Assembly (NCBI GenBank): GCA_964360335.1
Contig: CAYHVH010000001.1
Coordinates: 23,426 to 87,425 of the forward strand
Reading direction: 5' to 3'
Length of the DNA: 64,000 bases
Origin: an uncultured Candidatus Saccharibacteria bacterium
Lineage (GTDB): Bacteria > Patescibacteriota > Doudnabacteria > UBA920 > 2-01-FULL-46-14
Position 1 is the first letter of the stretch. Each line of letters starts with the position of its first letter. Made by a program: the position numbers and the translations under genes. This document shows positions 497 through 61,300 of this stretch, piece by piece. Under the pieces are notes generated by a model. It saw nothing but the letters and a program-made list of their open reading frames with translations. It ran no database searches and was not told where the DNA came from.

Positions 497-1876
497 CTAT
501 CTACTAACTCCTAACTTTTTAAGTTCTTCCCTTGCCACCTCCCGCTCGTCCCAAGGCAGCTCCACACCGTCCACATTCAAGCTTTGCTCGTGCCCCTTGC
601 CCGTGATGGCCACCAAATCACCGCTTTTGGCTTGGTTGAGGGCAAATCTGATAGCTTCGCGGCGATCAGGGATGATAAACAAATCAGTATTAAGGCGCTT
701 GTTTTTTACGCCGGACGCAATTTCTTGGCAGATTTTCTCGGCTGGTTCCGACCGATTGTCCTCTCGGGTTAAAACTATGGAGTTGGCAAACTCGTCGGCG
801 GCGCTTCCCATCAGCGGCCGCTTGGTCGAATCACGCTCGCCGGCGGCGCCAAACACCATAATAATGCTGCCCGAAACTTTCGGCCGTAAAAACGACAGCA
901 ACTCTCGCAAGCCGTTCGGCGTATGAGCAAAATCCACCAGGACCAAAAAAGGCGCTTTGGTTTCCAAAAACTCCATCCGGCCGGAAACGGTTTTTATCTG
1001 ACTAAGCCCCTTTTGAATACTGGCCACTGGAATTTTGTAAGCTGTAGCTACGGCAATGGCCGCCAAGGCATTTTTGACATTAAACTGGCCGGGAAGGCTC
1101 AACTCTATGGGAAAGCCGCCTGCTGGAGTATGAACTGAGAGCTTGCTTCCTTCCAAACTTTCATTGATGTCGCTGGCCCAAATCTGTGCCCGACTACTGA
1201 AGCCGTAAGTAAGCAACCTCTCCTTTAATTCCTCCCCATCGCTTGGGGAGGAAGATCGGAAGGAAAGACCATCACCAGGAGACCCGCCTTCGGCAAGCTT
1301 CGGACGGGCAGGTGGGGAGAGGGGGAGAGAGGTCGAAATTAATTTCAATAGTTGTTCATAACTTTTATCCTCTCGGTTCAAAACCGCGTATTTCACATTT
1401 TTAAACACTTTTGCTTTTGCCCGCAAATACTCCCCATAAGTTTTATGATAATCCAAATGCTCGTGGGTGACATTGGTAATGACCGCCGTTTCAAAGGTAA
1501 TTCCCCATGTCCGGTATTGGTCTAAGGCGTGGGAGGTGACTTCCAAAACCGCGTACTGGGAGCCGGCTTTGACCATTTGCTGAAGCAGCCGTTGCAACAA
1601 AAAGGAGCTGGGCGTGGTGGTATGCAGGCCGGTGTCAAGCGCTTGTCGCCCGATCTGCGCATTAATTGTCGAGAGAAAAGACACTGGCAGCCCTGCGGCT
1701 TTCAAGATGCTCGCTACGAGATTAACCGTCGTGGTTTTGCCGTCAGTACCAGTGACCCCGATGACATGCAGTTTGCGGGACGGGAAGCCATAGATAAAAT
1801 TCGCGAGGATGGCTCCCGCGAGGTGGTAGTAATTGATAAGTTTTTGACCTAAAAATTTACGTAAAAAGTTTTTCAT
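497..1876 (-). CDS. murE: UDP-N-acetylmuramoyl-tripeptide synthetase (Mur ligase, MurE-like) carrying an in-frame repeat insertion
   Basis: P-loop GVTGTDGKTTT, Mur ligase middle and C-terminal domains, and a REDNRSEP motif (DNPR-like). 459 aa including a roughly 41-aa insert. Confidence 0.75.
   Translation of the reverse strand: MKNFLRKFLGQKLINYYHLAGAILANFIYGFPSRKLHVIGVTGTDGKTTTVNLVASILKAAGLPVSFLSTINAQIGRQALDTGLHTTTPSSFLLQRLLQQMVKAGSQYAVLEVTSHALDQYRTWGITFETAVITNVTHEHLDYHKTYGEYLRAKAKVFKNVKYAVLNREDKSYEQLLKLISTSLPLSPPARPKLAEGGSPGDGLSFRSSSPSDGEELKERLLTYGFSSRAQIWASDINESLEGSKLSVHTPAGGFPIELSLPGQFNVKNALAAIAVATAYKIPVASIQKGLSQIKTVSGRMEFLETKAPFLVLVDFAHTPNGLRELLSFLRPKVSGSIIMVFGAAGERDSTKRPLMGSAADEFANSIVLTREDNRSEPAEKICQEIASGVKNKRLNTDLFIIPDRREAIRFALNQAKSGDLVAITGKGHEQSLNVDGVELPWDEREVAREELKKLGVSR
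1213..1335. repeat. Family-A palindromic element inside murE, in frame (~123 bp)
   Basis: GCAACCTCTCC...CTCCCCATCGCTTGGGGAGG...GGAGAGAGGTCGAA. Encodes the loop SPGDGLSFRSSSPSDGEELKERLL. About 85% identical to the copy at 5981. Confidence 0.7.
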
Positions 1877-2008
1877 GAAACTTCCCTCCTCCCCAGGCGC
1901 CCGGCCTTCGTAGCCACTTCGGCGGAGTAGGCTGGGGAGGAGAAGGAGGAGAGGTCGAACTGTGGATCCTTGTATGCAACCTCTCTCCAGCTCTCCCCTC
2001 GCCAGGGG
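1872..2008. repeat. Family-A element, intergenic (murE start / ruvA stop), two units
   Basis: CCTCCTCCCCAGGCG...GGCTGGGGAGGAG...GGAGAGGTCGAAC and GCAACCTCTCTCCAGCTCTCCCCTCGCCAGGGGAGAGAG. Confidence 0.65.
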
Positions 2009-2021
2009 AGAGAGTTAAGCG

Positions 2022-2606: not shown

Positions 2607-2686
2607 GCAGGTATTATGCCTATTGAATAAGTTTTTTTCAATCTGCTAAAATGAAAGTTGACCCTGTCTAATCTAATGCTAATGCT

Positions 2687-2785
2687 GCCCTCTCCAGGCG
2701 TGGAGAGGGACTAAGGGAGAGGTCGCATTTGCGACATAATAAACGACCTCTCTTCCGGCCTCTCCCCACGCCTGGGGAGAGGAGA
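2687..2785. repeat. Family-A element, intergenic (ruvA / uvrB), two half-units; its 3' end GGAGAGGAGAAG lies at the Shine-Dalgarno position for uvrB
   Basis: CTCTCCAGGCGTGGAGAGGGACTAAGGGAGAGGTCGC ... CGACCTCTCTTCCGGCCTCTCCCCACGCCTGGGGAGAGGAGAAG, followed by the uvrB ATG at 2794. Confidence 0.65.
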
Positions 2786-2793
2786 AGTAGCTT

Positions 2794-4850: not shown

Positions 4851-5109
4851 ATATTTTCGCTATCGCCTGACTAAGCCGAGATTTCAATCGCGCGGCTTTG
4901 TTTTTGTGAATGACGTGCTTTTTCCAAGCCTTGTCGATTTGTTTGTAGGCAAGACTTAAGGCTTTGACCGCTTCTTCTTTCTTTTTCGCGGCCACGGCCT
5001 GGCGAACAGACTTTACCGCATCCTTGTACTTCCCAATAGTCACTAGGTTAATCGTCCGTCTGCGACGGCTCTGTCTCATCGCCTTGGCTGCAGATCGCGT
5101 AATCGGCAT
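4849..5109 (-). CDS. rpsT: 30S ribosomal protein S20
   Basis: MPITRSAAKAMRQSRRRRTINL...; 86 aa from an internal ATG. The longer 110-aa ORF has an implausible hydrophobic leader. Confidence 0.85.
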   Translation of the reverse strand: MPITRSAAKAMRQSRRRRTINLVTIGKYKDAVKSVRQAVAAKKKEEAVKALSLAYKQIDKAWKKHVIHKNKAARLKSRLSQAIAKI

Positions 5110-5177
5110 GATAGTAAAAAAATAAAATTCAAACGTTAAATGACGTAGCGTTACATTAGCAAAAAAGGGAAACCCGG

Positions 5178-6410
5178 TCAACCCCGGAACAGCTTGTAAA
5201 GTTTAAACAGCGCGTAAAATGCCCGATTCAAAACCAGATCCCGGGCGCCGACACCGTAGACTTCCTTGCCCGTCACTCCGGCCGTGACATACCGGGTTTT
5301 GAACCGGGTAATCCCAGCCCAAGGATGGTCTGGTTCGTTCGGCGGGGCGACGCCCCACAAATCATACCATTTTTTGCCGCGTTGTCTGCTTAATTTGATT
5401 GCTTCCCAAAGGACAAGGCTTGGAGCATTGGCGGTTCGCTCTTTGGCAGAAGAAGCCGCGTACAAATAAGTTCCGGAATCACCGAAAAGCATAATGACGG
5501 CGGCAGCCAGGATTTCGCCTTGATATTCGCCGACCAGAAGCTCGGCGTGGGGTGCAAGCGACCTCTCCTTTGGTCCCTCCCCACGCCTGGGGAGGGAAGA
5601 AGAAAATAAAGCTTCTACTTGCGGAGTATTTGACCCCTCCTCAACCCTCCCCTCCTGCCCGTCCGGCAGGCGGGCGTCAGGAGAGGGAGTCATGAAGATA
5701 TCACGGAATTTCATGAATCGCTCGCGCGGCCAAGATACAATCCCGTCTCGTTTGGTGGTTTCCTCCAAAAGCTTCAAGAAAATTTCAAAAGCCCCTTTGT
5801 CTTGAGTCGCTACTCGCACTTTTACTCCCCTGCGCTGGGCGAGGCGGATATTGTAGCGGGATTTTTCGTGCATATTCTCCAAGAGTTCTTCCTCGCTTCT
5901 GCTTAAATCCACCAAAATCGTGCGAGCTGGCTCCATCTGCCGAAGCAAAATCTCGGGCTTTCTGAAACCCAGACCTGCAAGCGACCTCTCCTTCAACTCC
6001 TCCCCATCGCCTGGGGAGGAAGAGACAGAAGGATGCGGCGGATTAATTCTCGCCAAAACGGATTTTTCCTGCCGGCCGATTTCTTTGATTTTTTCTATCA
6101 AGGCCTGCATACCCCCTCTCCACTCTCCCCCTAAGTTAGGGGGAGAAAAAGAGGGGGTACCGCCCAATTCATGATTCGTAATTCTTGATTCGTCGAAAAT
6201 CGGTCCCTTCGGCACTTCCAAATAAGTTCTGCCAAACGGCAGCCTTTTTATTACGACTTGCGCTAAAAGCTGGTTCTGGATATCGAAGCGATAAACTTTG
6301 TGGCCGAGAGCGGCTTGAAACTGCCCCCATTGCCAGGACTGGAGGAAAGAGGAAGGAGAAGAGTTCCTGGCTACAAATTCATTCCAATTATCTTTAGAAA
6401 GTAGATTCAT
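5178..6410 (-). CDS. FemAB-family peptidoglycan aminoacyltransferase (lipid II amino-acid transferase-like) carrying two in-frame repeat insertions
   Basis: FemAB/FemX-like N-terminus (SSFLQSWQWGQF) and C-terminal GNAT-like fold. 410 aa including inserts. Confidence 0.65.
   Translation of the reverse strand: MNLLSKDNWNEFVARNSSPSSFLQSWQWGQFQAALGHKVYRFDIQNQLLAQVVIKRLPFGRTYLEVPKGPIFDESRITNHELGGTPSFSPPNLGGEWRGGMQALIEKIKEIGRQEKSVLARINPPHPSVSSSPGDGEELKERSLAGLGFRKPEILLRQMEPARTILVDLSRSEEELLENMHEKSRYNIRLAQRRGVKVRVATQDKGAFEIFLKLLEETTKRDGIVSWPRERFMKFRDIFMTPSPDARLPDGQEGRVEEGSNTPQVEALFSSSLPRRGEGPKERSLAPHAELLVGEYQGEILAAAVIMLFGDSGTYLYAASSAKERTANAPSLVLWEAIKLSRQRGKKWYDLWGVAPPNEPDHPWAGITRFKTRYVTAGVTGKEVYGVGARDLVLNRAFYALFKLYKLFRG
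5566..5690. repeat. Family-A element, in frame in the FemAB-like gene (unit 1)
   Basis: GCGACCTCTCCTTTGGTCCCTCCCCACGCCTGGGGAGGGAAGAAG... Encodes ...SLPRRGEGPKERSLAP... Confidence 0.65.
5981..6160. repeat. Family-A element(s), in frame in the FemAB-like gene (unit 2 plus a nested palindrome)
   Basis: GCGACCTCTCCTTCAACTCCTCCCCATCGCCTGGGGAGGAAGAGACAGAAGG (encodes SPGDGEELKERSLAG) and CCCCCTCTCCACTCTCCCCCTAAGTTAGGGGGAGAAAAAGAGGGGG (encodes GTPSFSPPNLGGEWRGG). Confidence 0.65.
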
Positions 6411-6501
6411 AATTATACGCTCGCCATTCTGGAGTCCCGCCCTCTGGCGGGACGATAGAATCCTAGAGATCCTTCCCCCTCGACTACGCTCGGGGTCAGG
6501 A

Positions 6502-9276
6502 TTACACGGCTTGCCGTGTCATCTCTTCCCAATTATCGCCGAACTTGGCTTCCACGACGAGGGGAACTTTGAGTTTATAAATATTCTGCATGATTTTGGT
6601 AATTTTTCCGGCATAGTCATCAACTTTCTTTTCGGCTATTTCAAACACCAGCTCATCGTGAACCTGTAAGAGCAACCGGCAATCCTCGCGAGACGTCAAA
6701 TTTTCCTCCGCCAGTTTGTTCATCGCCAGTTTGATAATATCCGCCGAAAGCGATTGAAACGGCATGTTGATGGCCGCTCGTTCAGCAGCGGCGCGAACTG
6801 GCCACTGCGAAGAATTAATCTCGGGGAGATACCGGAGTCGCCCGAGTTCGTTTTTGACGTAGCCCGAGCGGCGCGTTTCCCCAACTATTTCCTCAAGGTA
6901 GTGAGTCAAGCTGTGATAGGTTTCGAAATATTTATCGATAAAATCTTGGGCTTCGCCTTGGGACACTCCTTTGATCCGGCTCTTGAGACCATAAGCGGAA
7001 AGGCCGTAGAGTACCCCGAAATTTATGGTCTTGGCATCTCGGCGCATTTCCGGGGTAATTTCGACCTCTCCTCCAGCTCCTCCCCTCGCCAGGGGAGAAG
7101 GGAGGGATTGAAAAATCTCGCGAGCTGTTGCTTCGTGAATGTCGCCGCCTTCGTGAAAAACTTTAATCATTTTCTCGTCGCCCGACAAATGGGCGGCCAG
7201 ACGAAGCTCAATCTGGGAGTAGTCCACGGACAGCAATTTATACCCTGTTTCGGCAACGAACGCCCCGCGGATTTTTCGACCAAACTCGGTGCGGATCGGA
7301 ATGTTCTGGAGATTCGGTTCGCTGGAGGACAATCGCCCGGTGGCAGTAACTGTCTGGTTAAAACTTGTGTGTAGCCGCCGCGTTTGAGGACTAACCAAAT
7401 CCGGCAAGGCATCTAGATAAGTATTTTTAAGTTTCGTTAATTCCCGCCATTCCGATATCAAATCAATAATCGGATGCAATCCTTTGAGCTTCTCGAGTTC
7501 CGTGGCCGCCGTGGACAGGCCGGTTTTGCCTTTTTTGAGCTCCTCGGTGGGAATCCCCAATTTCTCAAATAATATCTGTTTTAGCTGGATCGGGCTGCCG
7601 ATGTTAAATCTCTCGCCCGAAAGCCGGTAAATCTTCTGTTCGAGTTTCGAAATCTCCGCCGTGGCCTCGGCCGACAACTCCTTCAAGCACGACGGATTGA
7701 CCTTTACTCCCCAGCGTTCCATTTCCGCCAAAACTCTCACCAGCGGCATTTCGATCTCATAAAAAATTTTCTCTAAATCTTTACTTCTTAGCTCTTTTTC
7801 CAGTTTTTGTTTTAGCCGGAAAGTGTAGTCCACATCCTCGCAACAGTAAGCCGCGACCTCTCGGACCGGCACTTCGGCCATGCTAATCTCTTTTTTGCCT
7901 TCGCCAATCAAACTTTTAATCGGGGTTTTCCGGAAGCCAAACTCGGTAAAACTTAGGGTGTCCAAATCGAAATTCCGCGCCCCGGGGTTTAAAAGATAGG
8001 CGGCAATCATCGTGTCAAAAAACTCTCCTCCCAAAATCACTCCGGCCTTTTGCAAAATCAAATAATCATACTTGAGATTATGGCCGATTTTCAGAACTTC
8101 CGGATTCTGCAAAATTTCCGTGAGGGCCGGGGAAATCATCGCCGCCGGCAGGTAAAAGGCCCGGTTTTCTTGCCACGCCAACCCGAGGCCGAGAAGCTCA
8201 GCCTGCATCGGGTGAACCGAGGTCGTTTCGGTATCAATAGCGATTTGTTTCTGCCTCTCAAGCTCAGTAATGATGCTTTGGAATTTTTTCGGCGTATCAA
8301 GGAGCTGATAGTCAAATTCCTCCTCGCCCCCTCTGCTCCCTCGAGCTCTACTTAGGGCAGGCTCATGAGGGGAGTGGGGGATGTCAGTCTTTGGCAGTTT
8401 ATCCAAAAGTGAACGGAACTCCAGCTCCTGAAAAAGTTTAAAAACTTTCTGTTCATCATAAGCCAGAAGCCGGGCCTGGGTTAAATCCAGTTTCACCGGG
8501 AGGTTTTTGACGATTGTTGCCAATTTTTTGGAAATTTCCGCATCCGCCCGGTGTTCCAGAAGCAGTCGAGCGACGCGCGGCTTGAGCGCCGAGTGGTCTT
8601 TGCCGACTAAATATTTATAAATTCCTTCCAAGGTCTTAAATTTTTGCAGGAGCTCGGTCGCGGTTTTTTCCCCGATGCCTTTGACCCCGGGAATGTTATC
8701 CGAAGGATCACCGCGCAGGGCTTTAAAATCTAGAAGTTCCTCGGGTCTGAGGCCATATCGCTCCCGAACCGCCCCCACGTCATAAAGTTTGGTTTCGGTC
8801 AAGCCTTGCTTAGGAGCATAGACTTTCACCCGTTCGTCTACTAATTGCAGGGTGTCCAAATCCCCGGTTAAAATCACAGTATCCAAATCTTCCTGCTTCC
8901 GGGCTTTTTCGGCCAGAGTGCCAATCAAATCATCAGCTTCATAACTTTCCAGTTCATAGACTGGAAGATTAAAAGCTCTGACCAATTCTTTGACGCGGGG
9001 AATTTGCTCATAAAGTTCGGCGGGGGCTTTAATTCTTGTTGCCTTATAAGGCTCATAAATTTTTTCCCGGAAAGTTGGCGCCGGAAAGTCAAACGTCACT
9101 GCCACGTACTCGGGCCGCAGTTCTTTGAGGGCTTTCAAAAACAACAGGGCAAAACCGTAAACGCCGTTTACTGGCTCGCCCTTTTTGGTGGACAGGTGAG
9201 GAATCGCGTGAAAGCCGCGGTGGACCAAAGCATTGCCGTCTACCAATAATAAAACTGGTTTATCTTTGCTGGACAT
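6502..9276 (-). CDS. polA: DNA polymerase I
   Basis: 924 aa. 5'-3' exonuclease, 3'-5' exonuclease-like and polymerase domains (motif RRDAKTINFGVLYG, and the motif-C region SQIELRLAAHLSGDE). Two in-frame repeat insertions. Confidence 0.95.
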   Translation of the reverse strand: MSSKDKPVLLLVDGNALVHRGFHAIPHLSTKKGEPVNGVYGFALLFLKALKELRPEYVAVTFDFPAPTFREKIYEPYKATRIKAPAELYEQIPRVKELVRAFNLPVYELESYEADDLIGTLAEKARKQEDLDTVILTGDLDTLQLVDERVKVYAPKQGLTETKLYDVGAVRERYGLRPEELLDFKALRGDPSDNIPGVKGIGEKTATELLQKFKTLEGIYKYLVGKDHSALKPRVARLLLEHRADAEISKKLATIVKNLPVKLDLTQARLLAYDEQKVFKLFQELEFRSLLDKLPKTDIPHSPHEPALSRARGSRGGEEEFDYQLLDTPKKFQSIITELERQKQIAIDTETTSVHPMQAELLGLGLAWQENRAFYLPAAMISPALTEILQNPEVLKIGHNLKYDYLILQKAGVILGGEFFDTMIAAYLLNPGARNFDLDTLSFTEFGFRKTPIKSLIGEGKKEISMAEVPVREVAAYCCEDVDYTFRLKQKLEKELRSKDLEKIFYEIEMPLVRVLAEMERWGVKVNPSCLKELSAEATAEISKLEQKIYRLSGERFNIGSPIQLKQILFEKLGIPTEELKKGKTGLSTAATELEKLKGLHPIIDLISEWRELTKLKNTYLDALPDLVSPQTRRLHTSFNQTVTATGRLSSSEPNLQNIPIRTEFGRKIRGAFVAETGYKLLSVDYSQIELRLAAHLSGDEKMIKVFHEGGDIHEATAREIFQSLPSPLARGGAGGEVEITPEMRRDAKTINFGVLYGLSAYGLKSRIKGVSQGEAQDFIDKYFETYHSLTHYLEEIVGETRRSGYVKNELGRLRYLPEINSSQWPVRAAAERAAINMPFQSLSADIIKLAMNKLAEENLTSREDCRLLLQVHDELVFEIAEKKVDDYAGKITKIMQNIYKLKVPLVVEAKFGDNWEEMTRQAV
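7061..7106. repeat. Family-A element in frame in the polA fingers region
   Basis: TCGACCTCTCCTCCAGCTCCTCCCCTCGCCAGGGGAGAAGGGAGGG. Encodes SLPSPLARGGAGGEVE immediately upstream of the RRxxKxxNFG O-helix. Confidence 0.65.
8318..8385. repeat. Degenerate family-A-like palindromic insert in the polA interdomain linker
   Basis: CCCCCTCTGCTCCCTCGAGC...GAGGGGAGTGGGGG. Encodes HSPHEPALSRARGSRGGEEE. Confidence 0.4.
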
Positions 9277-15726: not shown

Positions 15727-15802
15727 CAACATAAGTCCATATTGTCTACGTTTTTATGTAATTACATAATGTTGTAGACAAGCGAATTTAGCAAAAAGTA
15801 AA

Positions 15803-15838
15803 AAAGGAGACAGACTACAACGCGGTCTGTCAGCGCTT
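15803..15838 (-). repeat. 36-bp hairpin repeat copy 1 (AAAAAGGAGACAGACTACAACGCGGTCTGTCAGCGCT); terminator of the minus-strand RibA-like gene
   Basis: Identical copy at 17683-17717. On the minus strand it reads GACAGACCGCGTTGTAGTCTGTC then TCCTTTTT. Confidence 0.7.
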
Positions 15839-17653: not shown

Positions 17654-17682
17654 ATTTTCTGGACTAGGAAAAGGGGATAAAA

Positions 17683-17717
17683 AGGAGACAGACTACAACG
17701 CGGTCTGTCAGCGCTAA
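17683..17717 (-). repeat. 36-bp hairpin repeat copy 2; terminator of the minus-strand OMP-like gene
   Basis: Identical to 15803-15838. On the minus strand the hairpin is followed by TCCTTTTTAT. Confidence 0.7.
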
Positions 17718-25358: not shown

Positions 25359-25360
25359 TT

Positions 25361-26455: not shown

Positions 26456-26499
26456 AAAAGTGATTGTTTCTAAAGAAGAAGTTTTAGTAAGGAGTAATT

Positions 26500-46212: not shown

Positions 46213-48270
46213 ATGGCTGACCTTGTGAAACTCAAAGAACTCGCCAGGCTCGTTCGTTACTATATTCTGGTCTCGACCACGGCCGCGGGGTCCGGGCACC
46301 CAACATCTTCGCTGTCTGGCGTGGAACTGATGACGGCATTGATGTTTGGCGGCTATTTTCGCTTTGACTTGAATCGTCTGGGATACGCAAACAATGACCG
46401 GCTGATTTTCTCCAAAGGCCATGCCTCGCCCCTCTTCTATGCGCTGTGGGCAGCGGCTGGCGCGCTGACGGAAAAAGAGCTTTTGACTTTGCGCAAATTT
46501 GGCAGCCCTTTGGAGGGGCATCCTACCCCGGCATTTCCCTATACCGAAGCGGCGACAGGCTCTTTGGGACAAGGGTTGTCAATTGGCGTGGGCATGGCCC
46601 TTAATGCCAAGCTTGACCGGCTTCCCTATCGCACTTATGTGCTTTTGGGGGACAGTGAAATGGCCGAGGGCTCGCAATGGGAGGCGATTCAGCTCGCCGC
46701 GTACTATAAACTTGATAATTTGGTCGGCGTTCTCGATGTCAATCGTTTGGGTCAACGAGGGCAGACGATTTACGGGCATGATATTAAAGCTTATCAGAAA
46801 CGCATCGCGGCGTTCGGGTGGAAGACTATAGTCGTGAATGGGCATAATTTGAATGAGATTTTGAAAGCGTACAAACAGGCGACCCCCTCTTCATCTCCCC
46901 CTATCCCGTTTGACGGGACAGGGGGAGAAAAGAGAGGGGGTGGAAGGCCGGTGATGATCATTGCCAAAACCATTAAAGGTAAAGGAGTTTCATTTATCGA
47001 AAACAAAGAAGGCTGGCATGGGAAGGCGCTTTCCCCGGAGGATTTGAGGAAGGCACTACGAGAATTGGGGAAAGTCGACAAGAAGATGCGAGGAGAGATG
47101 GCAAAGCCGGAGAGAATTAGTAGACCGGAGACAGTAGATAGTAGATCGGAAAGCAAAGAAAAAATTAATTACAAAATCGGAGAAGAGGCGGCAACAAGGA
47201 AGGCTTACGGTAACGCCCTAGTCAGGATTTATCCGAAGTTTCCGAATATCGTAGTCCTCGACGCCGAGGTTTCCAATTCAACTTACGCGGAGATATTCAA
47301 GGAAAAATATCCGGACCGGTTTTTGGAGATGTTTGTGGCGGAGCAGAATATGGTGGGTGCGGCTCTTGGTCTTTCGCGGCGCGGCAAGATCCCGTTTGTT
47401 TCGACCTTTGCCGCGTTCCTGACGCGCGCTTTTGACCAAATCCGAATGAGCCAGTATTCGGCCGCCAACATCAAGTTTGTGGGCTCGCACGCCGGGGTGT
47501 CCATCGGCGAGGACGGGCCGTCGCAGATGGGCCTCGAGGATTTGGCAATGTTTCGCAGTATTTTAGGAAGCGTGGTTTTGTATCCTTCGGATGCGGTTTC
47601 AACCGATAAGCTTGTGGAAGCGGCAGCTAAGCACAAAGGCATTGTCTATATCAGAACAACGCGAATGGAAACCCCGGTGCTTTATTCCCCGGGGCAGGAG
47701 TTCAAAATCGGCGGGAGTAAAGTTTTGCGCCATAGCCGGAAAGACGTGGCGACAGTGCTGGCGGCCGGGATAACATTGCATGAAGCGTTGGCCGCTTATG
47801 AAGAACTCAAGAAGCAAGGGGTTTTGATTCGGGTGATTGACTTGTACAGCATCAAACCGATTGATAAAAAGACATTGACGCAGGCTGCCAAAGAAACGGG
47901 AGCGATAATCACGGTCGAGGACCATTATCCCGAGGGCGGGATTGGGGAAGCGATTAGAAGCGCTCTTTCTGACCTCCCTCCCCAAAGCATGGGGAGGGAT
48001 AAAGGGAGAGGTTTTCCGCCAGCCCGCCCCGCTTCGCTTGGCGAGGCCGGGGAGGCGGATCCGCCTTGGGCAGAGAAACTCCCTGGTAAAACCGACCTCT
48101 CTCCTTCTCTCCCCATCACCTGGGGAGAGGGTAGGATTATCTCTTTAGCGGTGCGCAAAATGCCGCGAAGCGGCAAACCGCAGGAGCTTTTGGATTATGA
48201 AGAGATATCGCGCGATGCTATTATTAAGGAAGTAAAGAGAATTGTTTCTAAATCGTCACCTCGAATTTAA
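46213..48270 (+). CDS. tkt: Transketolase (full length) carrying 2-3 in-frame repeat insertions
   Basis: ThDP-binding motifs (GHPTPAF..., LLGDSEMAEGSQWEA), pyrimidine-binding and C-terminal domains. 685 aa. Confidence 0.9.
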   Translation: MADLVKLKELARLVRYYILVSTTAAGSGHPTSSLSGVELMTALMFGGYFRFDLNRLGYANNDRLIFSKGHASPLFYALWAAAGALTEKELLTLRKFGSPLEGHPTPAFPYTEAATGSLGQGLSIGVGMALNAKLDRLPYRTYVLLGDSEMAEGSQWEAIQLAAYYKLDNLVGVLDVNRLGQRGQTIYGHDIKAYQKRIAAFGWKTIVVNGHNLNEILKAYKQATPSSSPPIPFDGTGGEKRGGGRPVMIIAKTIKGKGVSFIENKEGWHGKALSPEDLRKALRELGKVDKKMRGEMAKPERISRPETVDSRSESKEKINYKIGEEAATRKAYGNALVRIYPKFPNIVVLDAEVSNSTYAEIFKEKYPDRFLEMFVAEQNMVGAALGLSRRGKIPFVSTFAAFLTRAFDQIRMSQYSAANIKFVGSHAGVSIGEDGPSQMGLEDLAMFRSILGSVVLYPSDAVSTDKLVEAAAKHKGIVYIRTTRMETPVLYSPGQEFKIGGSKVLRHSRKDVATVLAAGITLHEALAAYEELKKQGVLIRVIDLYSIKPIDKKTLTQAAKETGAIITVEDHYPEGGIGEAIRSALSDLPPQSMGRDKGRGFPPARPASLGEAGEADPPWAEKLPGKTDLSPSLPITWGEGRIISLAVRKMPRSGKPQELLDYEEISRDAIIKEVKRIVSKSSPRI
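46880..46945. repeat. Family-A-type nested palindrome in frame in tkt
   Basis: CGACCCCCTCTTCATCTCCCCCTATCCCGTTTGACGGGACAGGGGGAGAAAAGAGAGGGGGTGG. Encodes TPSSSPPIPFDGTGGEKRGGG. Confidence 0.65.
47970..48140. repeat. Composite family-A insertion (three palindromic units, ~171 bp) in frame in the tkt C-terminal domain
   Basis: TGACCTCCCTCCCCAAAGCATGGGGAGGGATAAAGGGAGAGG ... GGCGGATCCGCC ... CCGACCTCTCTCCTTCTCTCCCCATCACCTGGGGAGAGGG. Encodes a 57-aa loop. Confidence 0.7.
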
Positions 48271-50930: not shown

Positions 50931-51827
50931 ATGAGGCCCTCAAATTTAAAAACCCGCATCTTTCTTGACTCTGGGGATCCGAACGAAACGCGTGAAGTCA
51001 TAAAGTTTCTCGGGTTTTTGGACGGTCAGACGACTAATCCCAGCTTAATTGCCAAGAACCCGGAAACGACCGGCAAGAAATTTTCCCAAAAAGAGATTTT
51101 GGAATTTTATAAAAAAGTCGTGGTTGAGGTTTCCGCTCTGATCCCCGCCGGTTCCGTATCAGTTGAGGTTTACGCTGACCCTTCGACAAGCTCAGGGGAT
51201 ATGTTAGAACAAGGTCGAGATTTTTTTTCTTGGATTCCAAACGCACACATCAAATTTCCGACAACCAAAGAGGGCCTGAAGGCCGCTGAAATTGCCGTTA
51301 AAGAAGGCATGCGCGTCAATTTGACTTTGTGCTTTTCCCAGGAGCAGGCGGCGGCCGTGTACGCGGCAACGAGGGGAGCAAAAAAAGGGCAGGTCTTTGT
51401 TTCGCCGTTTGTCGGGCGGCTGGATGATCGGGGGGAGAACGGGATGCAGCTCGTTGAGAATATTATCAAAATGTATCGGGCGGGAGACGGGCATGTGGAG
51501 GTGCTGACCGCGAGCGTACGGAATCTCAATCATTTGCAGTACGCAATTCAGCTCGGTTCCGACATCCTGACCGCGCTGTTGAAGGTTTTGAAGGAGTGGG
51601 CCGACTCCAATTTCCCTCCCCAGGCGTGGAGAGCCCCCTTCTCTATCCCTCCCCAGGCGAGGGGAGGGATTAAGGGAGAGGTCGAAACGGCAAAGGAGTT
51701 GAAGCCAATACCCTACCGCGAGGTTTCTCTTGACAATCCCTGGCAGGACTACGACATTCGTCATGAGCTGACCGACGTCGGCATTGAAAAGTTTGCCGCG
51801 GATTGGAACGCGCTTATCAAGCCATAA
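50931..51827 (+). CDS. tal: Transaldolase / fructose-6-phosphate aldolase family (TalC/MipB-type) with an in-frame repeat insertion
   Basis: DSGDPNE..., FPTTKEGLKAAE..., NLTLCFS motifs. 298 aa. Confidence 0.85.
   Translation: MRPSNLKTRIFLDSGDPNETREVIKFLGFLDGQTTNPSLIAKNPETTGKKFSQKEILEFYKKVVVEVSALIPAGSVSVEVYADPSTSSGDMLEQGRDFFSWIPNAHIKFPTTKEGLKAAEIAVKEGMRVNLTLCFSQEQAAAVYAATRGAKKGQVFVSPFVGRLDDRGENGMQLVENIIKMYRAGDGHVEVLTASVRNLNHLQYAIQLGSDILTALLKVLKEWADSNFPPQAWRAPFSIPPQARGGIKGEVETAKELKPIPYREVSLDNPWQDYDIRHELTDVGIEKFAADWNALIKP
51611..51685. repeat. Family-A element in frame in tal
   Basis: ...CCCTCCCCAGGCGTGGAGAG...CCCTCCCCAGGCGAGGGGAGGGATTAAGGGAGAGGTCGAA. Encodes FPPQAWRAPFSIPPQARGGIKGEVE. Confidence 0.7.
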
Positions 51828-51857: not shown

Positions 51858-52916
51858 ATGATGCGCGACGCGATTCTCAGTTTTCCGAAGCAGTTCCGGT
51901 TCGTCCCGAAGGTGGAAAACGGGCCGGTGAAAAAATACAAAAAATACATTGTCGCCGGCATGGGCGGTTCGCACCTCGCCGCGGATATTTTGAAGACTTT
52001 AAAACCGGAATTGGATATCATCGTACATAGTGATTACGGATTGCCGGCTTTTCTCGACCCCTCCCGGCCTTCGGCCACCCTCCCCTCGTCAGGAGAGGGG
52101 GGAAGTAAGGAAAAACGTCTGGAGAGGCGAATTTCGCAAACTTTGCTCATCGCGAGTTCCTATTCGGGTAATACTGAAGAGACACTGGATGCATTTGAAC
52201 AAGCAAGAAGTAAAGGAATCGCAGTGGCGGCGATTGCGGTTGGCGGCAAGCTTCTGGAACTGGCCAAGCAGTATCAAACTCCTTATGTTCAGATGCCGGA
52301 TACGGGGATTCAGCCCCGTTCGGCCCTGGGCTTCAATTTGCGAGCGCTTCTGAAAATCATGAAGCAAGGCGAGCTCCTCAGGCAGAGCCGGGAGCTGGCT
52401 AAAAGTTTGCAGCCTAAGAATATCGAGGAAAAAGGCCGAGCGCTCGCGCAAAAGCTAAAGAGTCGGATGCCGGTAATTTACGCGTCGCAAAAAAACTATT
52501 CGCTCGCCTATAACTGGAAAATCAAATTTAACGAGACGGGCAAAATCCCGACCTTTTACAATATTTTTCCGGAACTGAATCACAACGAGATGTCCGGATT
52601 TTCCGCCGCAGGCGGACCCGCCTCTGGCGGGGACGCACCCGATCCTAAAAGTTTGTCAGAAAAATTTTATTTTCTCTTTTTGCATGACAGCAGCGATCAC
52701 CCGCAAATCCAAAAGCGAATGGACGCAACCGCGAAACTTTATCGGGAGCGCGGTTTGCCAGTGGAAATTTTACCGATTCAGGGGGAGAACGCCATGCACA
52801 AAATCTTCTCCTCACTGGTCCTTGCCGACTGGGCGGCACTTTACACGGCCGAGGGATATGGGTTTGAGGCCGAACGGGTGCCGATGGTGGAGGAGTTCAA
52901 GAAACTGATTAAGTGA
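51858..52916 (+). CDS. Bifunctional phosphoglucose/phosphomannose isomerase (archaeal-type SIS-domain PGI/PMI) with an in-frame repeat insertion
   Basis: Two SIS domains (VAGMGGSHLAADIL...; ...LIASSYSGNTEETL). 352 aa. Confidence 0.7.
   Translation: MMRDAILSFPKQFRFVPKVENGPVKKYKKYIVAGMGGSHLAADILKTLKPELDIIVHSDYGLPAFLDPSRPSATLPSSGEGGSKEKRLERRISQTLLIASSYSGNTEETLDAFEQARSKGIAVAAIAVGGKLLELAKQYQTPYVQMPDTGIQPRSALGFNLRALLKIMKQGELLRQSRELAKSLQPKNIEEKGRALAQKLKSRMPVIYASQKNYSLAYNWKIKFNETGKIPTFYNIFPELNHNEMSGFSAAGGPASGGDAPDPKSLSEKFYFLFLHDSSDHPQIQKRMDATAKLYRERGLPVEILPIQGENAMHKIFSSLVLADWAALYTAEGYGFEAERVPMVEEFKKLIK
52054..52110. repeat. Family-A-like palindrome in frame in the PGI/PMI gene
   Basis: CTCGACCCCTCCCGGCCTTCGGCCACCCTCCCCTCGTCAGGAGAGGGGGGAAG. 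Encodes DPSRPSATLPSSGEGGSKE. Confidence 0.6.
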
Positions 52917-54992: not shown

Positions 54993-57900
54993 ATGTCATC
55001 TAAAAAAAGCCAAACCGCCAATTTACCCATCAGGAAGAGCGTTACTGCCAAGCGCAACCGCTTTACGGCTACGACGGAAGTGGTGGAACTGCCGAATTTG
55101 ATCGAGATTCAAACCCAGTCCTACCGCTGGTTTTTTGAAAAAGGTTTGAAAGAGCTTTTTGAAGAGGTCAGCCCGGTCAAAGATTTTACGGGCAAAAATT
55201 TAGAGCTGCATTTCGGACAATACTTTTTGGACAAACCGAAATTTACCGAACTTGTGGCCAAGGAGCGCAATACGACCTACGAGGCGCCGCTTTACGTTCA
55301 AGTGAAACTCTTGAACAAGGCCAAGAACAAAACCAAAACCCAGGATGTTTACCTGGGCGATTTTCCGTTAATGACCAACCGCGGCACGTTTGTGATTAAC
55401 GGGGTGGAACGGGTAGTGGTCTCGCAGCTCATTAAATCGCCGGGAGTATTTTTCAGCGCGGTTTATGGCCGCGGCCGCAACTACTATGGCGCCAAGGTCA
55501 TCCCCAATCGGGGAGCGTGGTTGGAACTTGACACTGATCTCAACGGCGTGATTGGCGTGAAAATTGACCGCAAGCGCCGAATTCCGATTACCGCGCTGCT
55601 GCGGGTTTTCGGCCTTTCGGCAGACGAAGACATTCTGGCGGCGTTTGCGGATGTTGATACCAACCCCGATCTTAAATACCTGCAAAATACTTTGGAGAAA
55701 GATCTCTCCAAAAACGCCGATGAAGGGTTCAAAGAGGTTTATAAAAGAATCCGGCCGGGGGATCTGGCCACCGTAGACAACGCGCGGTCCCTGATCGAAG
55801 CCATGTTTTTTAACTTTGACCGTTATGACCTCTCTTTGGTCGGCCGCTACAAGTTCAACCAGCGGCTCGGAGTCAAAGGACGCTCAGACCGGATTTTGAC
55901 CCGCGAAGATTTGGTGGCAGTGGTCCGGGAGATTGTCCGCTTGAACAACTCCCAGGAGCCGCCGGATGACATCGATCATTTAGCGAATCGCCGAGTGCGG
56001 GCGGTGGGGGAGCTCATTCAGACAAAGTTTCGGGTGGGTTTGGCACGGATGAGCCGAATCGGCAAAGACCGAATGAGTCTGGCGGATTTGGAAACGGTCA
56101 TGCCGGCCCAGCTCATCCACGTCCGGCCGATTGTGGCGGTGATGCAGGAGTTCTTTTCTTCTTCCCAGCTTTCGCAATTTATGGATCAGACTAATCCTTT
56201 GGCCGAGCTTGAGCACAAACGGCGGCTGTCCGCGATGGGCCCCGGCGGGCTGTCGCGGGAACGGGCCGGTTTTGAGGTGCGCGATGTCCACCGGTCGCAT
56301 TACGGACGGCTCTGCCCGATTACCACGCCGGAAGGCCCGAACATTGGGCTAGTGGCCCATTTGGCATCCTATGCACGGATTAACGAATTTGGCTTTCTTG
56401 AAACTCCTTACCGGAAGGTGATCAAAGAAGGAGAGAGGCGGCGGGTAACCAATGACATTGTTTATTTAGATGCTTACGAAGAGGGACAGTATATCATTGC
56501 CCAGGCCAACACCAGAACAGACGAACAGGGTTATTTTTTGGAAGAGCGAGTTTCCGTGAGAGTCCACGGCGAGCCTTCTCTGGCCCCGACCTCCGAGATT
56601 GACTATATGGAAGTTTCTCCCAAACAGATTGTCTCGATTACTACTTCCTTGATTCCTTTTTTGGAACACGATGACGCCAACCGGGCGCTAATGGGCAGTA
56701 ACATGCAGCGGCAAGCCGTCCCCTGTATCCGGCCCCAAGCCCCGCTGGTGGGGACGGGGGTGGAAGAAAAAGCCGCTTTTGATTCGGGCCAGATTATAGT
56801 TTGCGACGCATCGGGAACGGTGACTTCAGTAACCGGCGAGAAAATTGTGGTGACCGGCGAGGACGGGACCAAACGGGAATATCTTTTAAAGAAGTTTTTG
56901 CGTTCAAATACCAGTACTAGTATCAATCAAAAACCGATTGTCCGGCGGGGCGAGAAGGTCGTCCGGGGCCAGGCTTTGGCGGATGGGCCGGCGACCGCTT
57001 CGGGTGAACTGGCTTTGGGACAAAACCTTCTGGTGGCGTTTATGTCTTGGGGCGGCTATAACTACGAAGATGCGGTGATTATTTCCTCGCGCGTCGTCCA
57101 GGACGATCGGTTTAGCTCGATTCATATCGAGGATTTCAAGGTTGACGTCCGGGATACTAAATTGGGCCCGGAGATTGTGACCCGGGATATCCCGAATGTC
57201 GGAGAGGAAAAATTGAAAGATTTGGATGAAAACGGGGTTGTCCGCATCGGTGCCCAAGTCAAGGCCGGCGATATTTTGGTCGGCAAGATTACTCCCAAAG
57301 GGGAAACAGATCTCACGGCCGAGGAAAAACTTTTACGTGTGATCTTCGGCGAAAAAGCCCGCGACGTCAAGGACACCTCTTTGACTTTACCCCATGGGGA
57401 ATACGGCAAAGTCGTCAACATCCGGGAATTTTCCCGGGAGCGAGGGGACAAATTGCCCTCCGGCGTAATTCGCTCCATCCAAGTTTCGGTGGCCGTAGTG
57501 CGGAGAATTTCCATGGGCGACAAGATGGCGGGGCGGCACGGGAACAAGGGTGTGATTTCCACCATCGTGCCGGCAGAGGATATGCCGTTTATGGCTGACG
57601 GAATGTCCGTGGACATCATTCTCAATCCGCTGGGGGTGGCCTCGCGCATGAATCTGGGACAAATTTTAGAAACCCACCTGGGGTTAGCCGCCCATAAACT
57701 GGGATATCAAGTCGTCAGCCCCGCGCTCGACGGAGTGCCGGAGGCAGTCATCAAGCAGGAGCTTATAAGGGCGGGCTACACGCCAGACGGCAAAGTGATT
57801 TTGTATGATGGGAAAACGGGAATGCCCTTCGCCGAGAAAGTTACGGTGGGTTATATCTACATGATGAAATTGCACCACCTTGTGGACGATAAAATGCACG

Positions 57901-58292
57901 CCCGTTCGACCGGCCCATATTCGCTCATTACCCAGCAACCGCTGGGCGGGAAAGCGCAGTTTGGGGGTCAGCGATTTGGCGAGATGGAAGTCTGGGCCTT
58001 GGAGGGTTACGGGGCGGCGCATACCTTGCAGGAAATGTTGACAATCAAATCGGATGACGTGGTCGGCCGATCCAGGACTTACGAGTCTATTGTTAAAGGG
58101 GAACCAATTAAAACCCCGAACATTCCTGAATCTTTCCGGGTTTTGGTTAAAGAGCTGCAGTCTCTGTGTCTGGATGTCAATCTGGTGGGCGAAGAACAAA
58201 AGCCGGACACGGAAGGGGAAGTGCAAGAGCTGGTTGCTCCGGTTTCCGAGGAGCGAGAGAAAAAGCGGGAAAAAACCCCAGCCGAAGCCTAG
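54993..58292 (+). CDS. rpoB: DNA-directed RNA polymerase subunit beta
   Basis: 1099 aa; conserved beta-subunit blocks throughout. Confidence 0.97.
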
Positions 58293-58305
58293 GATCAACC
58301 AAAAG

Positions 58306-61300
58306 ATGTTTCAAAAAACTTCGGAATTCAAAGCCGTCCAAGTGAAACTCGCTTCCCCCGAGCAGATTTTGAATTGGTCTTATGGTGAGGTAACCAAGCC
58401 GGAAACGATTAATTATCGAACCCAGCGTCCGGAAAAGGACGGCTTGTTTGATGAGAAAATTTTCGGGCCGGTCAAGGACTGGGAGTGTTATTGCGGGAAA
58501 TATAAACGGATTCGTTACAAAGGTATCATTTGCGACAAATGCGGCGTGGAAGTAACCCGCGCCCAGGTGCGGCGGGAACGGATGGGGCACATCAAACTGG
58601 CCGTACCGGTGGCCCATATTTGGTTTTTGCGCGGTGTGCCTTCGCGCCTGGGCTTGATTTTGAACCTCTCCGTCCAAGATTTGGAAAAAGTTATTTATTT
58701 CGCCTCTTATATTATCACCGAGGTCAAGGAAGACGCGCGGGCGGAAACATTGAACCAGATTGAAAAAGAATTCAAACTCAAGAAAAAGGAAATCGAGGGG
58801 CGTTACGAGAAGCTTTTCTCGAAGGCCAAGGGGGCAAAGCCTCCGACTGGGGCCGACCAGGAAGTTTGGGGCGCCCAGGTCGAAACCGAAATTGTGAAGC
58901 TTCGGGAAAACCAGCAGCACGAAGTTGTGGCCTTGGAGAAAATTCGCGATTTGGCCCGCTCGGAACTTAAAAGTCTCAAAAAGCTGCAGGTGATTTCTGA
59001 ACTAGAATACCGGGATTTGTCTCTGAAATACGGACCGGTTTTCAAAGCCAGCATTGGCGCCGAGGCGATTTGGCAGACTGTCAAAGACCTCGATTTGGAA
59101 AAACTGGTTCAGGAATTGGAGCAGGAATTGGGCAGAGCAGAGGGGGCAATAAGGCGGAAGATTATCAAACGTTTGAAGCTTGGGAAATCCTTATTGAAGG
59201 GTGGCATGCGGCCGGAATGGACGCTGATCACCGTTTTGCCGGTGATTCCTCCTGATCTAAGACCCATGGTCCAGTTGGATGGCGGCCGGTTTGCCGCTTC
59301 AGATTTAAATGATCTCTACCGCCGGGTCATCAATCGGAACAATCGTCTGAAACGGCTTTTAGAGATCAACGCTCCCGAAGTTATTACCCGCAATGAAAAA
59401 CGAATGTTGCAGGAAGCGGTGGATGCGCTAATTGACAATTCCATCCGGCACGGCAAGGAGGTTACTGCCTCCACCGGCCAGCGCCGAAAACTCCGCTCGC
59501 TGGCGGACATGCTCAAAGGCAAGCAGGGACGGTTCCGCCAGAATTTGCTTGGGAAAAGGGTGGATTATTCCGGGCGCTCGGTAATCGTGGTCGGGCCGGA
59601 GTTGAAACTCCATCAGTGCGGCTTGCCGAAACGCATGGCTTTGGAATTATTCAAACCGTTCGTGATTTCCAAACTGATTGCCCGCGAGTATGCCCACAAT
59701 GTCCGGTCCGCCAACCGACTGATTGAGCAGCAGCGTTCGGAAGTCTATGATATTTTGGAGGAGGTCACCAAAGACCATTATGTCCTTTTAAATCGCGCCC
59801 CGACCTTGCACCGCCTCGGCTTTCAAGCATTTCAGCCGGTGTTGATTGAGGGCAAAGCCATCCAGATTCATCCCATGGTCTGCCAGGCTTTCAATGCCGA
59901 TTTTGACGGAGACCAGATGGCGGTTCACGTGCCTTTAACCTCCCAAGCCCAGCAGGAAGCTAGGGAGCTCATGGTTTCTTCTCATAACTTACTGAAGCCG
60001 GCTTCGGGGGAGCCGATTATGACTCCCGATAAGGACGTGGTACTCGGTTGCTATTACATTACCTATTTTCGGATCGGGGCCTTGGGAGAAAACAAGATTT
60101 TTAGCGACGAACAGGAAGCCATTCTGGCTTATCAGTCCGGGGCCGTGTCGATTAATGCCAAGATCAAGGCCCGGATTCAGGGGAAGCTTTTAGAAACCTG
60201 TGTCGGGCGGATTTTGTTCAACCAGCTTCTTCCTCAAGAGCTCCAGTTTGTTAACGAGGTCACGGACAAGAAGCGGTTACGCCAGGTGGTGCGGGAGTGC
60301 TACCGCAATTTTGGTACGGAGCGCACAGCGGTTTTGATTGATGAGATTAAAAAGATTGGTTTTTCCCACCTTACCCAGTCAGGGTTGTCGTGGGGGATGG
60401 ATGATTTGCGGGTGCCGGTGATCAAACAGAAATTACTCCAAAGCGCCGACGAGGCCGTACAGCGGACCTACGAGCAGTATCAGGAGGGGCTACTGACCAA
60501 CGCGGAACGCTATAACCGGGTGGTCGAGATTTGGGCCGAAGTTCGAGACAAGATCACCGACGAAGTTACGAAGTCCCTCGACCAATACGGACCAGTTTAT
60601 TCGATGGTCGTTTCCGGCGCGCGCGGTTCCCTGTCGCAGGTTTCGCAGATGACCGGGATGAAAGGTTTGGTCGTCAATCCGGCCGGCGACGTCATTGAGC
60701 TGCCGGTCCGGGACAGCTTCAAAGAGGGTTTGAGCATTTTGGAATACTTTATTTCTACACACGGTTCGCGCAAAGGGATGAGCGATACGGCCTTGCGGAC
60801 TGCAGACGCCGGTTATCTCACTCGCCGGTTGGTGGATGTGGCGCAGGACGTGGTGGTCAACGAAGAAGATTGCGGCACGAAGTCCAGCATTGTAATTAAT
60901 CGCCAAGCGACGGCACAGATGGGAAAGACCGTGACCGAGCGGCTTTTCGGGCGAGTGTTGGCTCGGGATGTAGTTCACCCCCAGAGCCGCAAGACCTTGG
61001 CGAAACGCGGCCAGATTATCGATGATGTTTTGTCCCGGGATTTGGACAAGAGCGGGGCGGAAGAAATCTTGGTTCGTTCCGTACTGCATTGCACCCTGAA
61101 GCGGGGGGTTTGCATCAACTGTTATGGTTTTGATCTGGGTTACAACCGACCCGTGGAGCTGGGTGCGGCAGTAGGGATTATTGCGGCTCAGGCCATTGGG
61201 GAGCCGGGAACGCAATTGACTATGAGAACCTTCCATACCGGAGGAGTCGCTGGGTTGGACATCACTCAGGGTTTACCGCGGGTTGAGGAGCTATTCGAGG

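Follow-up and report, generated by a model that had tools for sequence, protein, structure and literature searches.

The DNA analysed here (the window) is a stretch of 64,000 nucleotides (nt), positions 23,426 to 87,425 of contig CAYHVH010000001.1 in GenBank assembly GCA_964360335.1. The source genome belongs to the Patescibacteria (Candidate Phyla Radiation, CPR) of the Hainich groundwater, and its nearest named relatives are labelled Kaiserbacteria, Doudnabacteria or 'Saccharibacteria'. A FemAB/FemX-family gene at 5178..6410 on the minus strand is intact, encodes 410 amino acids (aa) and is host to three insertion blocks made of a short palindromic repeat that recurs throughout the window. 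Its open reading frame (ORF) scores 104.3 bits against the Pfam family FemAB (PF02388; gathering cut-off 24, E = 8.7e-30) and 41 bits against the NCBIfam FemX equivalog, far under the 500-bit cut-off of the latter. An aminoacyl-tRNA-dependent addition to a peptidoglycan precursor, as expected of the family, is a putative function of the protein. The closest database relatives of the protein are 45-59% identical to it (local alignment) and 336-380 aa long, and the named ones among them are Patescibacteria/CPR, e.g. Kaiserbacteria. There is no sign of pseudogenisation, the ORF being open and all 75 of the 75 columns that are invariant across a 25-sequence orthologue alignment being retained. The first-pass annotation of this DNA had named a frameshift or stop, hidden by a misread ORF, as the weak point of its reading. 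We looked for both and found the ORF intact; an identical 410-aa protein is encoded by a separate ENA contig (L001) recovered from Hainich groundwater (metagenome Hain_H51, 0.1 µm fraction). The frame was therefore read correctly, and the gene is unlikely to be a product of the assembly.

Compared with a 345-aa syntenic ortholog, the window protein has three extra blocks, which hold four repeat units, all on the minus strand. Block 1 (aa 83-103, ~6102-6164) is the palindrome ACCCCCTCTCC...GGAGAAAAAGAGGGGGT at 6111..6158, a variant of the form ACCCCCTCT..CTCCCCC-TAAGTTA-GGGGGAG..AGAGGGGGT that encodes GTPSFSPPNLGGEWRGG and folds into a two-tier hairpin (-20.1 kcal/mol, z = -5.1). It matches our covariance model of the repeat, R1, only weakly (E = 0.011). 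Block 2 (aa 131-142) is one unit at 5978..6027, which encodes SSPGDGEELKERSLA and matches R1 with 50.5 bits (E = 3e-13). Block 3 (aa 248-285) consists of two tandem units. The one at 5555..5603, a hairpin followed by a GGAGAGGTCG box, encodes SLPRRGEGPKERSLA, matches R1 with 69.7 bits (E = 4.5e-19) and forms a DNA hairpin of -12.7 kcal/mol. The second, older one at 5632..5688 encodes TPSPDARLPDGQEGRVEEGSN, is a weak match (E = 0.079) and carries a small hairpin, CCTGCCCGTCCGGCAGGCGGGC, nested in its loop (~5650-5675). In the relative L002 (GCA_041497195.1), block 1 and the unit at 5555..5603 are missing and a 12-aa gap stands at block 2. The first-pass annotation had counted two insertions and a palindrome; the insertions stand, the count does not, and the range 5566-5690, which it took for a single copy, holds the two tandem units of block 3. 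Its palindrome at 6110-6160 was recovered and has a second copy in the window, at 46880-46942; the peptides it quoted agree with the translations of the ORF, and these insertions of a dispersed repeat do stay open in the FemAB frame, as it had said.

The repeat unit is ~45 nt long. It consists of a hairpin of 9-10 bp (CCCTCCCC-loop-GGGGAGGG; more precisely tCCCTCCCC, a loop of 4-7 nt and GGGGAGGGa), a short spacer and then a conserved purine box, GGAGAGGTCG, the whole being laid out as TCCCTCCCC-AGGCGT-GGGGAGGGA-TTAA-GGGAGAGGTCG-AA. The dispersed family was first picked up by a repeat search over the window, where the 17-mer GCAAGCGACCTCTCCTT occurs 3 times against 0.13 expected. We aligned the copies, built R1 and scanned the window with the filters off, which gave 12 full units with E from 4.5e-19 to 6e-6 and, in addition, partial and variant copies. 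The 17-mer and the R1 matches of the copies at 5555 and 5978 confirm the earlier claim that these two belong to one element family. The density is about one unit per 4-5 kb. The units occur as singletons, as inverted dimers (1880-2019, 2681-2788 and 47969-48136), and as a tandem pair (5555-5688). Some have further, smaller hairpins inside the loop (1880-1961, 5632-5688, 46880-46942 and 52051-52106). Across 50 units from the window and from other Patescibacteria loci, 96.6% of the stem cells are paired, and 5 of the 10 stem pairs have changed on both sides, in 50 cells, a result reached by 0 of 500 shuffles. The pairing of the hairpin is kept through compensatory changes. Rfam, searched at gathering and permissive thresholds with the window and 17 loci of other phyla, has no family that covers the motif and returned weak, chance microRNA-like matches only.

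A smaller second hairpin family lies nested in the loops and spacers of the units. Among its members are CCTGCCCGTCCGGCAGGCGGGC and a number of stems capped by C(TTCG)G loops, and we noted it in the window at 5650-5675, 1283-1312, 1895-1925 and 52062-52075, as well as at ~5800-5830 of locus L111 and at FemAB site 3 (the position of block 3) of locus L112. Loops of the UUCG type are RNA-stability motifs, and the C(TTCG)G loops hint at a role or an intermediate at the RNA level.

The majority of the units in the window sit in-frame inside housekeeping genes; there are seven such hosts, all of them intact. Besides FemAB, the Mur ligase gene (497..1876, minus strand) has a unit at 1210..1259 (minus) that forms, with a partial inverted unit at 1287-1339, an insertion of 37 aa. 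In PolA (6502..9276, minus) a unit at 7058..7106 (minus) is read in another phase and encodes SPLARGGAGGEVE, and the unit at 36169..36217 (minus) in RuvC (35765..36283, minus) makes up a 16-aa insertion relative to E. coli RuvC. The transketolase gene (46213..48270, plus) carries the second two-tier copy, a sister of FemAB block 1, as a 19-aa insertion at 46880..46942 and, at 47969..48136, an inverted pair with a GC-rich spacer (47969-48015 plus, 48089-48136 minus) as one of ~54 aa. The transaldolase gene (50931..51827, plus) has a partial and a full unit at 51616..51688 (plus), which are part of a ~54-aa insertion, and the phosphoglucose isomerase gene (51858..52916, plus) has a variant unit with a nested GGCCTTCGGCC hairpin at 52051..52106 (minus; R1 E = 6.2e-6). 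Two inverted dimers lie between genes: one at 1880..2019 in the spacer of RuvA and the Mur ligase (1880-1961 plus, 1973-2019 minus), found with R1, and one at 2681..2788 between RuvA and UvrB (2681-2729 plus, 2740-2788 minus), which folds with -30.6 kcal/mol (z = -5.1). Two further sites with inserted sequence were noted. At 8314-8382 (minus) PolA has a second insert (…SRARGSRGGEEEF…) of ~11 aa more than L002, which R1 does not recognise and which may be a decayed copy or belong to another family. The PolA-FemAB spacer, 6411-6501, is 91 nt long against 14 nt in L002 and contains two other hairpins, GTCCCGCCCTCTGGCGGGAC and CCCCTCGACTACGCTCGGGG, which are further small palindromic insertions of other types.

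The units are read in several frames. The copy at 5555 reads TCC CTC CCC AGG CGT GGG GAG GGA CCA AAG GAG AGG TCG CTT GCA, i.e. S L P R R G E G P K E R S L A, and the copy at 5978 reads TCC TCC CCA GGC GAT GGG GAG GAG TTG AAG GAG AGG TCG CTT GCA, i.e. S S P G D G E E L K E R S L A. The two copies have the same orientation and, from GGG GAG on, that is over their 3' two-thirds, the same codon phase (GEGP-KERSLA and GEEL-KERSLA). Only the 5' arm and the loop are shifted (CTC CCC AGG CGT against C TCC CCA GGC GAT), because the loop has 6 nt (AGGCGT) in the former and 7 nt (AGGCGAT) in the latter. The idea of the first-pass annotation that one core is translated in two frames therefore fails for this FemAB pair except in the 5' arm, and it is right for the family: of the eight full units inside genes, four have the box in phase 0 (…KERS…), two, those of PolA (…GGEVE…) and transaldolase (…KGEVE…), have it in phase 1 and one has it in phase 2, while the remaining unit is antisense.

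The six-frame translation that had been proposed as a check shows that the consensus is not open throughout, since it has a TAA in one sense and in one antisense frame. Of the 47 units whose box could be recognised, 21 and 22 have a stop in these two frames, compared with 1-7 units in each of the other four. The transketolase copy at 47969 uses the sense frame with the consensus TAA and reads GATAAAG instead of GATTAAG, as predicted if the surviving copies have been selected for an open frame. All of the ~10 intragenic blocks keep the downstream frame and are stop-free in the frame used; we therefore infer that they are translated, and neither skipped nor excised.

The comparison with relatives identifies the copies as insertions. 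L002 shares the gene order of the window over 12 genes (TsaD-like, Mur ligase, RuvA, UvrB, S20, FemAB, PolA, type II secretion ATPase, DHH, TsaE, VanW and M17), and no repeat unit was found in its 20 kb. Differing N-termini aside, every insertion of at least 9 aa in the window proteins relative to those of L002 coincides with GC-rich repeat sequence. This applies to the Mur ligase (37 aa), to the three blocks of FemAB and to PolA, with its 9 aa and its second GC-rich insert. Alignments to solved homologues give the same picture for RuvC (16 aa inserted), transaldolase (~54 aa) and transketolase (19 aa and ~54 aa). Two FemAB alleles that are ~96% identical, L112 and L113, differ by an element block of 120 nt in place of 15 nt, with raised divergence in the neighbouring sequence, so the turnover of the elements is ongoing. 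L110, another FemAB locus, has an intact copy of the older unit at the same site and in the same frame as the window (TPSPGVGRVGERSN), with neither the nested hairpin nor the second tandem unit. The units of the window FemAB gene have therefore accumulated stepwise.

The insertion blocks fall in loops of the modelled protein. As the first-pass annotation had proposed, we modelled the FemX fold: an AlphaFold2 model built on the ortholog alignment is confident overall (predicted TM score 0.82), and its residues with a predicted local distance difference test value below 50 (75-91, 127-131 and 247-280) overlap all three blocks. The best Foldseek matches of the model are the FemX structures 6snr, 1xe4 and 1ne9, with a target-normalised TM score of up to 0.78, and the window protein thus has the FemX fold of two GNAT-like domains. 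According to this model, the blocks occupy permissive loops. Other FemAB orthologues likewise have GC-hairpin inserts at these loops, all three of them, but different ones of their own, and site 3 is also the position of an extra segment of ~57 residues in S. aureus FemX (6snr), which lies outside the profile. In the A1 alignment, the ortholog P0029 has one 13-aa insert (GPPAPQAGALRAG, GPPASQAGALRAG) at two sites, columns 58-69 and 449-460, presumably another GC-rich repeat family that entered this gene twice.

Copies at the same sites in relatives are unusually well conserved. L111 lies in the assembly GCA_964396685.1, which is syntenic with the window (PolA-FemAB-UvrB-RuvA-Mur ligase-TsaD) and has ~73% aa identity to it, about as distant as L002, the three genomes forming a rough trichotomy. 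In PolA, the window and L111 have a unit at the same codon, …PPLARGGGGGEVEITPE against …SPLARGGAGGEVEITPE, with 41 of 45 positions identical and 13 of 15 third positions, compared with 67% and 39% in the rest of the gene. The inverted dimer between RuvA and the Mur ligase is orthologous in the window and L111, with conserved stems and boxes, diverged spacers and loops and one compensatory change of C:G to T:A, and L002 has no units there. The Mur ligase unit has a same-site counterpart in L086 with 29 of 39 positions identical and 9 of 13 third positions, against 41% in the rest of the gene; in this copy the hairpin is kept and the box has decayed. We also inspected the UvrB-RuvA spacer of L111 for an orthologous dimer and saw other hairpins, none of this family. 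The shared copies are patchy among roughly equidistant lineages. The same-site conservation may be explained by selection at the nucleotide level, by gene conversion between copies or by recurrent site-specific insertion or allele exchange. Together with the compensatory changes in the stems, a conservation above that of third positions contradicts the view of the first-pass annotation that the elements are selected only for not breaking the host ORF. GCA_964396685.1 (contigs CAYNFS01…, loci L111, L046, L073 and L100) is a metagenome-assembled genome (MAG) named 'uncultured Candidatus Saccharibacteria' with the same repeat family, and this taxonomic label looks loose.

The motif is not restricted to these genomes. 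We scanned one genome per species with the pattern CTCCCC-N4-7-GGGGAG-N8-GGAGAGGTCG, for which we estimate less than one match by chance, or a few given GC-rich genomes, and found at least 104 loci. The matches listed (L005-L108) include several Patescibacteria MAGs, some with many copies, many Chloroflexota, Armatimonadota, Bipolaricaulota and cyanobacteria, e.g. the isolates Calothrix NIES-2100 (L075) and Scytonema hofmanni UTEX 2349 (L070), an Anaerolineae (L042) and an Armatimonadota genome (L017). In 109 copies across phyla among these matches, positions that the pattern does not force are conserved too: cCCCTCCCC-loop-GGGGAGGGG-yyg-GGGGAGAGGTCG. At the other Patescibacteria loci, 26 of 37 units lie within open frames of at least 150 aa. 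Viral contigs gave one exact match only, and hence no sign of a phage vector. Often another hairpin, ACCTAACCCCC..GCCCCCTTCCCT-loop-AGGGAAGGGGGAG, comes before the cross-phylum motif. In Stigonema (L030), a HEARO RNA (Rfam RF02033, 97.5 bits) at 5025-5240 is ~2.4 kb from two copies of the motif, with no evidence of a link between them. Literature searches for the motif strings returned no relevant paper, and those for Rickettsia palindromic elements (RPE) together with CPR returned none, and the family appears to be undescribed.

RPE, reportedly introduced by Ogata et al. in 2000, are one of the known systems that the repeat resembles. They are short dispersed palindromes in a reduced genome, placed in-frame in unrelated housekeeping genes as well as between genes, with the host protein spared (cf. 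PMC3733652, PMC1779305), and are thought to be translated as extra surface segments. Likewise, the window repeat lies in-frame in seven unrelated genes whose orthologues or solved homologues lack the inserts. However, the sequences are unrelated, the unit is ~45 nt long against ~100-150 nt for RPE-1, and where RPE-4 and RPE-6 have a CGTC tag beside the stem it has the long box 4-8 nt from the stem. The host phylum differs as well, the motif also occurs in other phyla, and the same-site copies look constrained at the nucleotide level. Membership in an RPE family is implausible, the C/G-rich composition of the stem (CCCTCCCC) and the host phylum speaking against it.

Repetitive extragenic palindromic sequences (REP) are close in structure. 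They and the related REPINs have a GC-rich stem-loop (stem of 6-13 bp) with a short loop and an unpaired conserved tail (PMC3733652; REPINs, PMC3116915), occur as singletons, head-to-head or tail-to-tail dimers and clusters, split into subfamilies by compensatory stem changes and have intragenic copies. REP dimers that lie within genes encode 20-30 aa, above all in genes for DNA replication and repair, PolA among them (Di Nocera et al. 2013, PMC3733652), and copies of intragenic REPs and RPEs are found in PolA and Uvr genes (PMC3733652). The window family, with its stem of 10 bp and 5 covarying pairs, has inverted dimers at 1880-2019 and 2681-2788 and also in L053, L087 and L092. In contrast to REPs, its tail has 10-12 nt and no GTAG or CGTC at the foot of the stem, most copies are intragenic whereas REPs are mostly extragenic, and no REP-associated tyrosine transposase (RAYT, of the IS200/IS605 Y1 type) was found in the window. 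The conserved unpaired part is GGAGAGGTCG (reverse complement CGACCTCTCC), 4-8 nt from the stem, in the 11 window units and the 109 cross-phylum copies. We rejected an assignment to the GTAG-/CGTC-tagged REP super-family (PMC3733652), whose defining tag is absent from all of these.

MITEs (miniature inverted-repeat transposable elements) such as Correia/NEMIS and Nezha (PMC10969869, PMC3184786) are also small, non-autonomous and readable through ORFs, and some composite window copies are bounded by inverted boxes, CGACCTCTCC...GGAGAGGTCG (e.g. 1210-1339). Unlike MITEs, most window units have one box only, with no target-site duplication or parent insertion sequence found. A hairpin that is always bounded by two boxes as terminal inverted repeats was rejected, an upstream box lying within 90 nt in only 16 of the 109 cross-phylum copies. 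The box as a mimic of a Shine-Dalgarno or anti-Shine-Dalgarno sequence, with a sense-specific role in RNA, was set aside, the orientation to the host genes being mixed in other genomes. The small dispersed repeats of heterocystous cyanobacteria, reportedly treated by Elhai et al. in 2008, are also very short and mobile, and they frequently sit within other repeats or hairpins. The phyla with the window motif include the Cyanobacteria (for papers citing cyanobacterial repeats see PMC5861425, PMC6006769).

Taken together, our data make it probable that a REP/RPE-like intragenic palindromic repeat of a new family has been inserted into FemAB and other genes. The element would be mobile and non-autonomous, of the REP/MITE kind. 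We propose that the genome has been colonised by a family of short GC-rich palindromic repeats, whose units would insert both between and inside genes. Inside genes, the survivors would be the frame-keeping, stop-free copies in permissive surface loops, and these would be translated as extra loops rich in Pro, Gly, Glu, Arg and Ser. The FemAB gene would have gathered its four units at three loops in at least two rounds, with site 3 first receiving an older unit, in common with one relative, and later gaining the nested hairpin and the second tandem unit.

Several observations weigh against this proposal. In roughly equidistant relatives, copies at one and the same site show much stronger conservation than neutral positions, which a purely selfish, decaying insertion would not predict. 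Neither the alignment to L002 nor the L112/L113 pair gave a clean target-site duplication or a clean empty site: in the former the boundaries of the insertions are not fixed because the codon-level alignment is too diverged, and in the latter the block replaces 15 nt and is not a pure addition. A Pfam scan of the main, non-overlapping ORFs of the window (~50; the short ones that overlap them and seemed spurious were left out) gave housekeeping genes only, with no Y1_Tnp or other transposase domain, RAYT or integrase, nor was any of these seen among the window genes named through L002. No autonomous partner thus came up among these ORFs. As the window probably covers little of the genome, the lack of a RAYT is not decisive.

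A pseudogene, an assembly artefact, or linkers selected at the protein level without a common DNA origin seem hardly credible to us. The inserts are indeed of low complexity and disordered in the model, but the intact ORF with all its invariant residues and the identical protein on a separate ENA contig speak against the former two, and the same DNA unit in other frames, antisense and between genes excludes the latter. GC-rich hairpin inserts are bypassed in some yeast mitochondria, and the stable hairpins of the window elements might be taken to suggest that they are removed before the protein is made or while it is being made, through excision from the RNA, through bypassing in translation (T4 gene 60 and the 'byp' elements of mitochondria being examples) or through protein splicing of the intein kind, with the mature enzymes unchanged. 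Nothing supports this directly and we regard it as very improbable: ~10 intragenic blocks are stop-free and frame-preserving, which is expected only of translated sequence, the copy at 47969 has lost the TAA of its consensus frame, and there are no intein or intron signatures and no Rfam match.

The conservation of the same-site copies can be read in more than one way. The copies could be independent recent site-specific insertions, or exchanged alleles that bear an insert, instead of ancient constrained orthologues; we hold this possible, if rather doubtful. The PolA unit is confined to the window and L111 and the Mur ligase unit to the window and L086, the left junctions of the PolA copies differ by 3 codons, several empty sites resemble the purine box of the element (TGGAGAG, TCTCC, GAAGT), and the P0004/P0008 alleles diverge more beside the element block, as a recombination tract would. 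Against this reading, the loop and spacer of the window PolA copy are of the subtype prevailing in the other genome and not of the one dominant in its own, and the dimer between RuvA and the Mur ligase, of one architecture with different loops and spacers, looks like one old event followed by divergence. Alternatively, the repeat could be a functional cis-element in DNA or RNA, such as a binding site for a conserved protein (gyrase, say, or one of the nucleoid), a signal for recombination or repair or one of the DNA-uptake type, which is selected wherever it is placed. This would be compatible with an origin by insertion and would account for the excess of identical third positions in the PolA and Mur ligase copies, the conserved stems and boxes of the intergenic dimer with their compensatory change, the covariation of the hairpin over 50 copies and the presence of the motif in several phyla. 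Nevertheless, we consider it unlikely: L002, L110 and L113 are seemingly unaffected without copies at the same sites, the intragenic orientation in other genomes is mixed (~14 sense and 12 antisense by our own count), and some copies are visibly decaying, as shown by the loss of the box in L086. Gene conversion between copies or recurrent insertion could also mimic conservation, and the sample is small, with three orthologous sites. A more far-reaching version, which we think quite unlikely, sees one ancient or horizontally spreading family (cCCCTCCCC-loop-GGGGAGGGG-nnn-GGGGAGAGGTCG), kept nearly invariant by a conserved trans-acting machine, with copies in essential genes constrained at the nucleotide level. 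The putative machine could then be an unrecognised mobilising enzyme or a host factor that binds DNA or RNA, and the family may be common to Patescibacteria, Chloroflexota, Cyanobacteria, Armatimonadota and others.

We also observed some other features in the window. A perfect direct repeat of 37 nt, AAAAAGGAGACAGACTACAACGCGGTCTGTCAGCGCT, which contains a hairpin, occurs at 15801-15837 and 17679-17715 and flanks a 1.9-kb segment with a GTP-cyclohydrolase-II-like gene and a TrmB-type regulator; the two copies could be the boundaries of a cassette or duplicated terminators. At 24228-30104, recF-dnaN-dnaA on the minus strand face rnpA-yidC-KH/R3H on the plus strand, a classical neighbourhood of the replication origin, and because of this arrangement oriC is probably near 28.2-28.9 kb. 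At 54993-62205 the listed rpoB (54993..58292) and rpoC (58054..62205) ORFs overlap by ~240 nt, and the true start of rpoC is probably downstream of the first in-frame start codon.

A non-autonomous repeat inserted into core genes, as we propose, would extend the paradigm of selfish palindromes in genes from Rickettsia to the Candidate Phyla Radiation. CPR genomes are tiny and usually called poor in mobile elements, and here the units are spaced every few kilobases and mostly in core enzymes. For annotation, it would mean that many CPR proteins carry Pro/Gly/Glu/Arg-rich loops of 10-55 residues that stem from repeats and not from function. Such loops inflate the apparent divergence of the proteins, and they can be masked once the motif is known. 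The independent, repeated insertions at three loops of FemX map the permissive surface of this enzyme family. Some traits are unusual for REP-like repeats: a near-identical motif of 35-40 nt across phyla, same-site conservation beyond the synonymous level, no transposase found nearby and, within a reduced genome, preferred positions inside core genes. These traits offer a testable handle on how the element moves or what it does.

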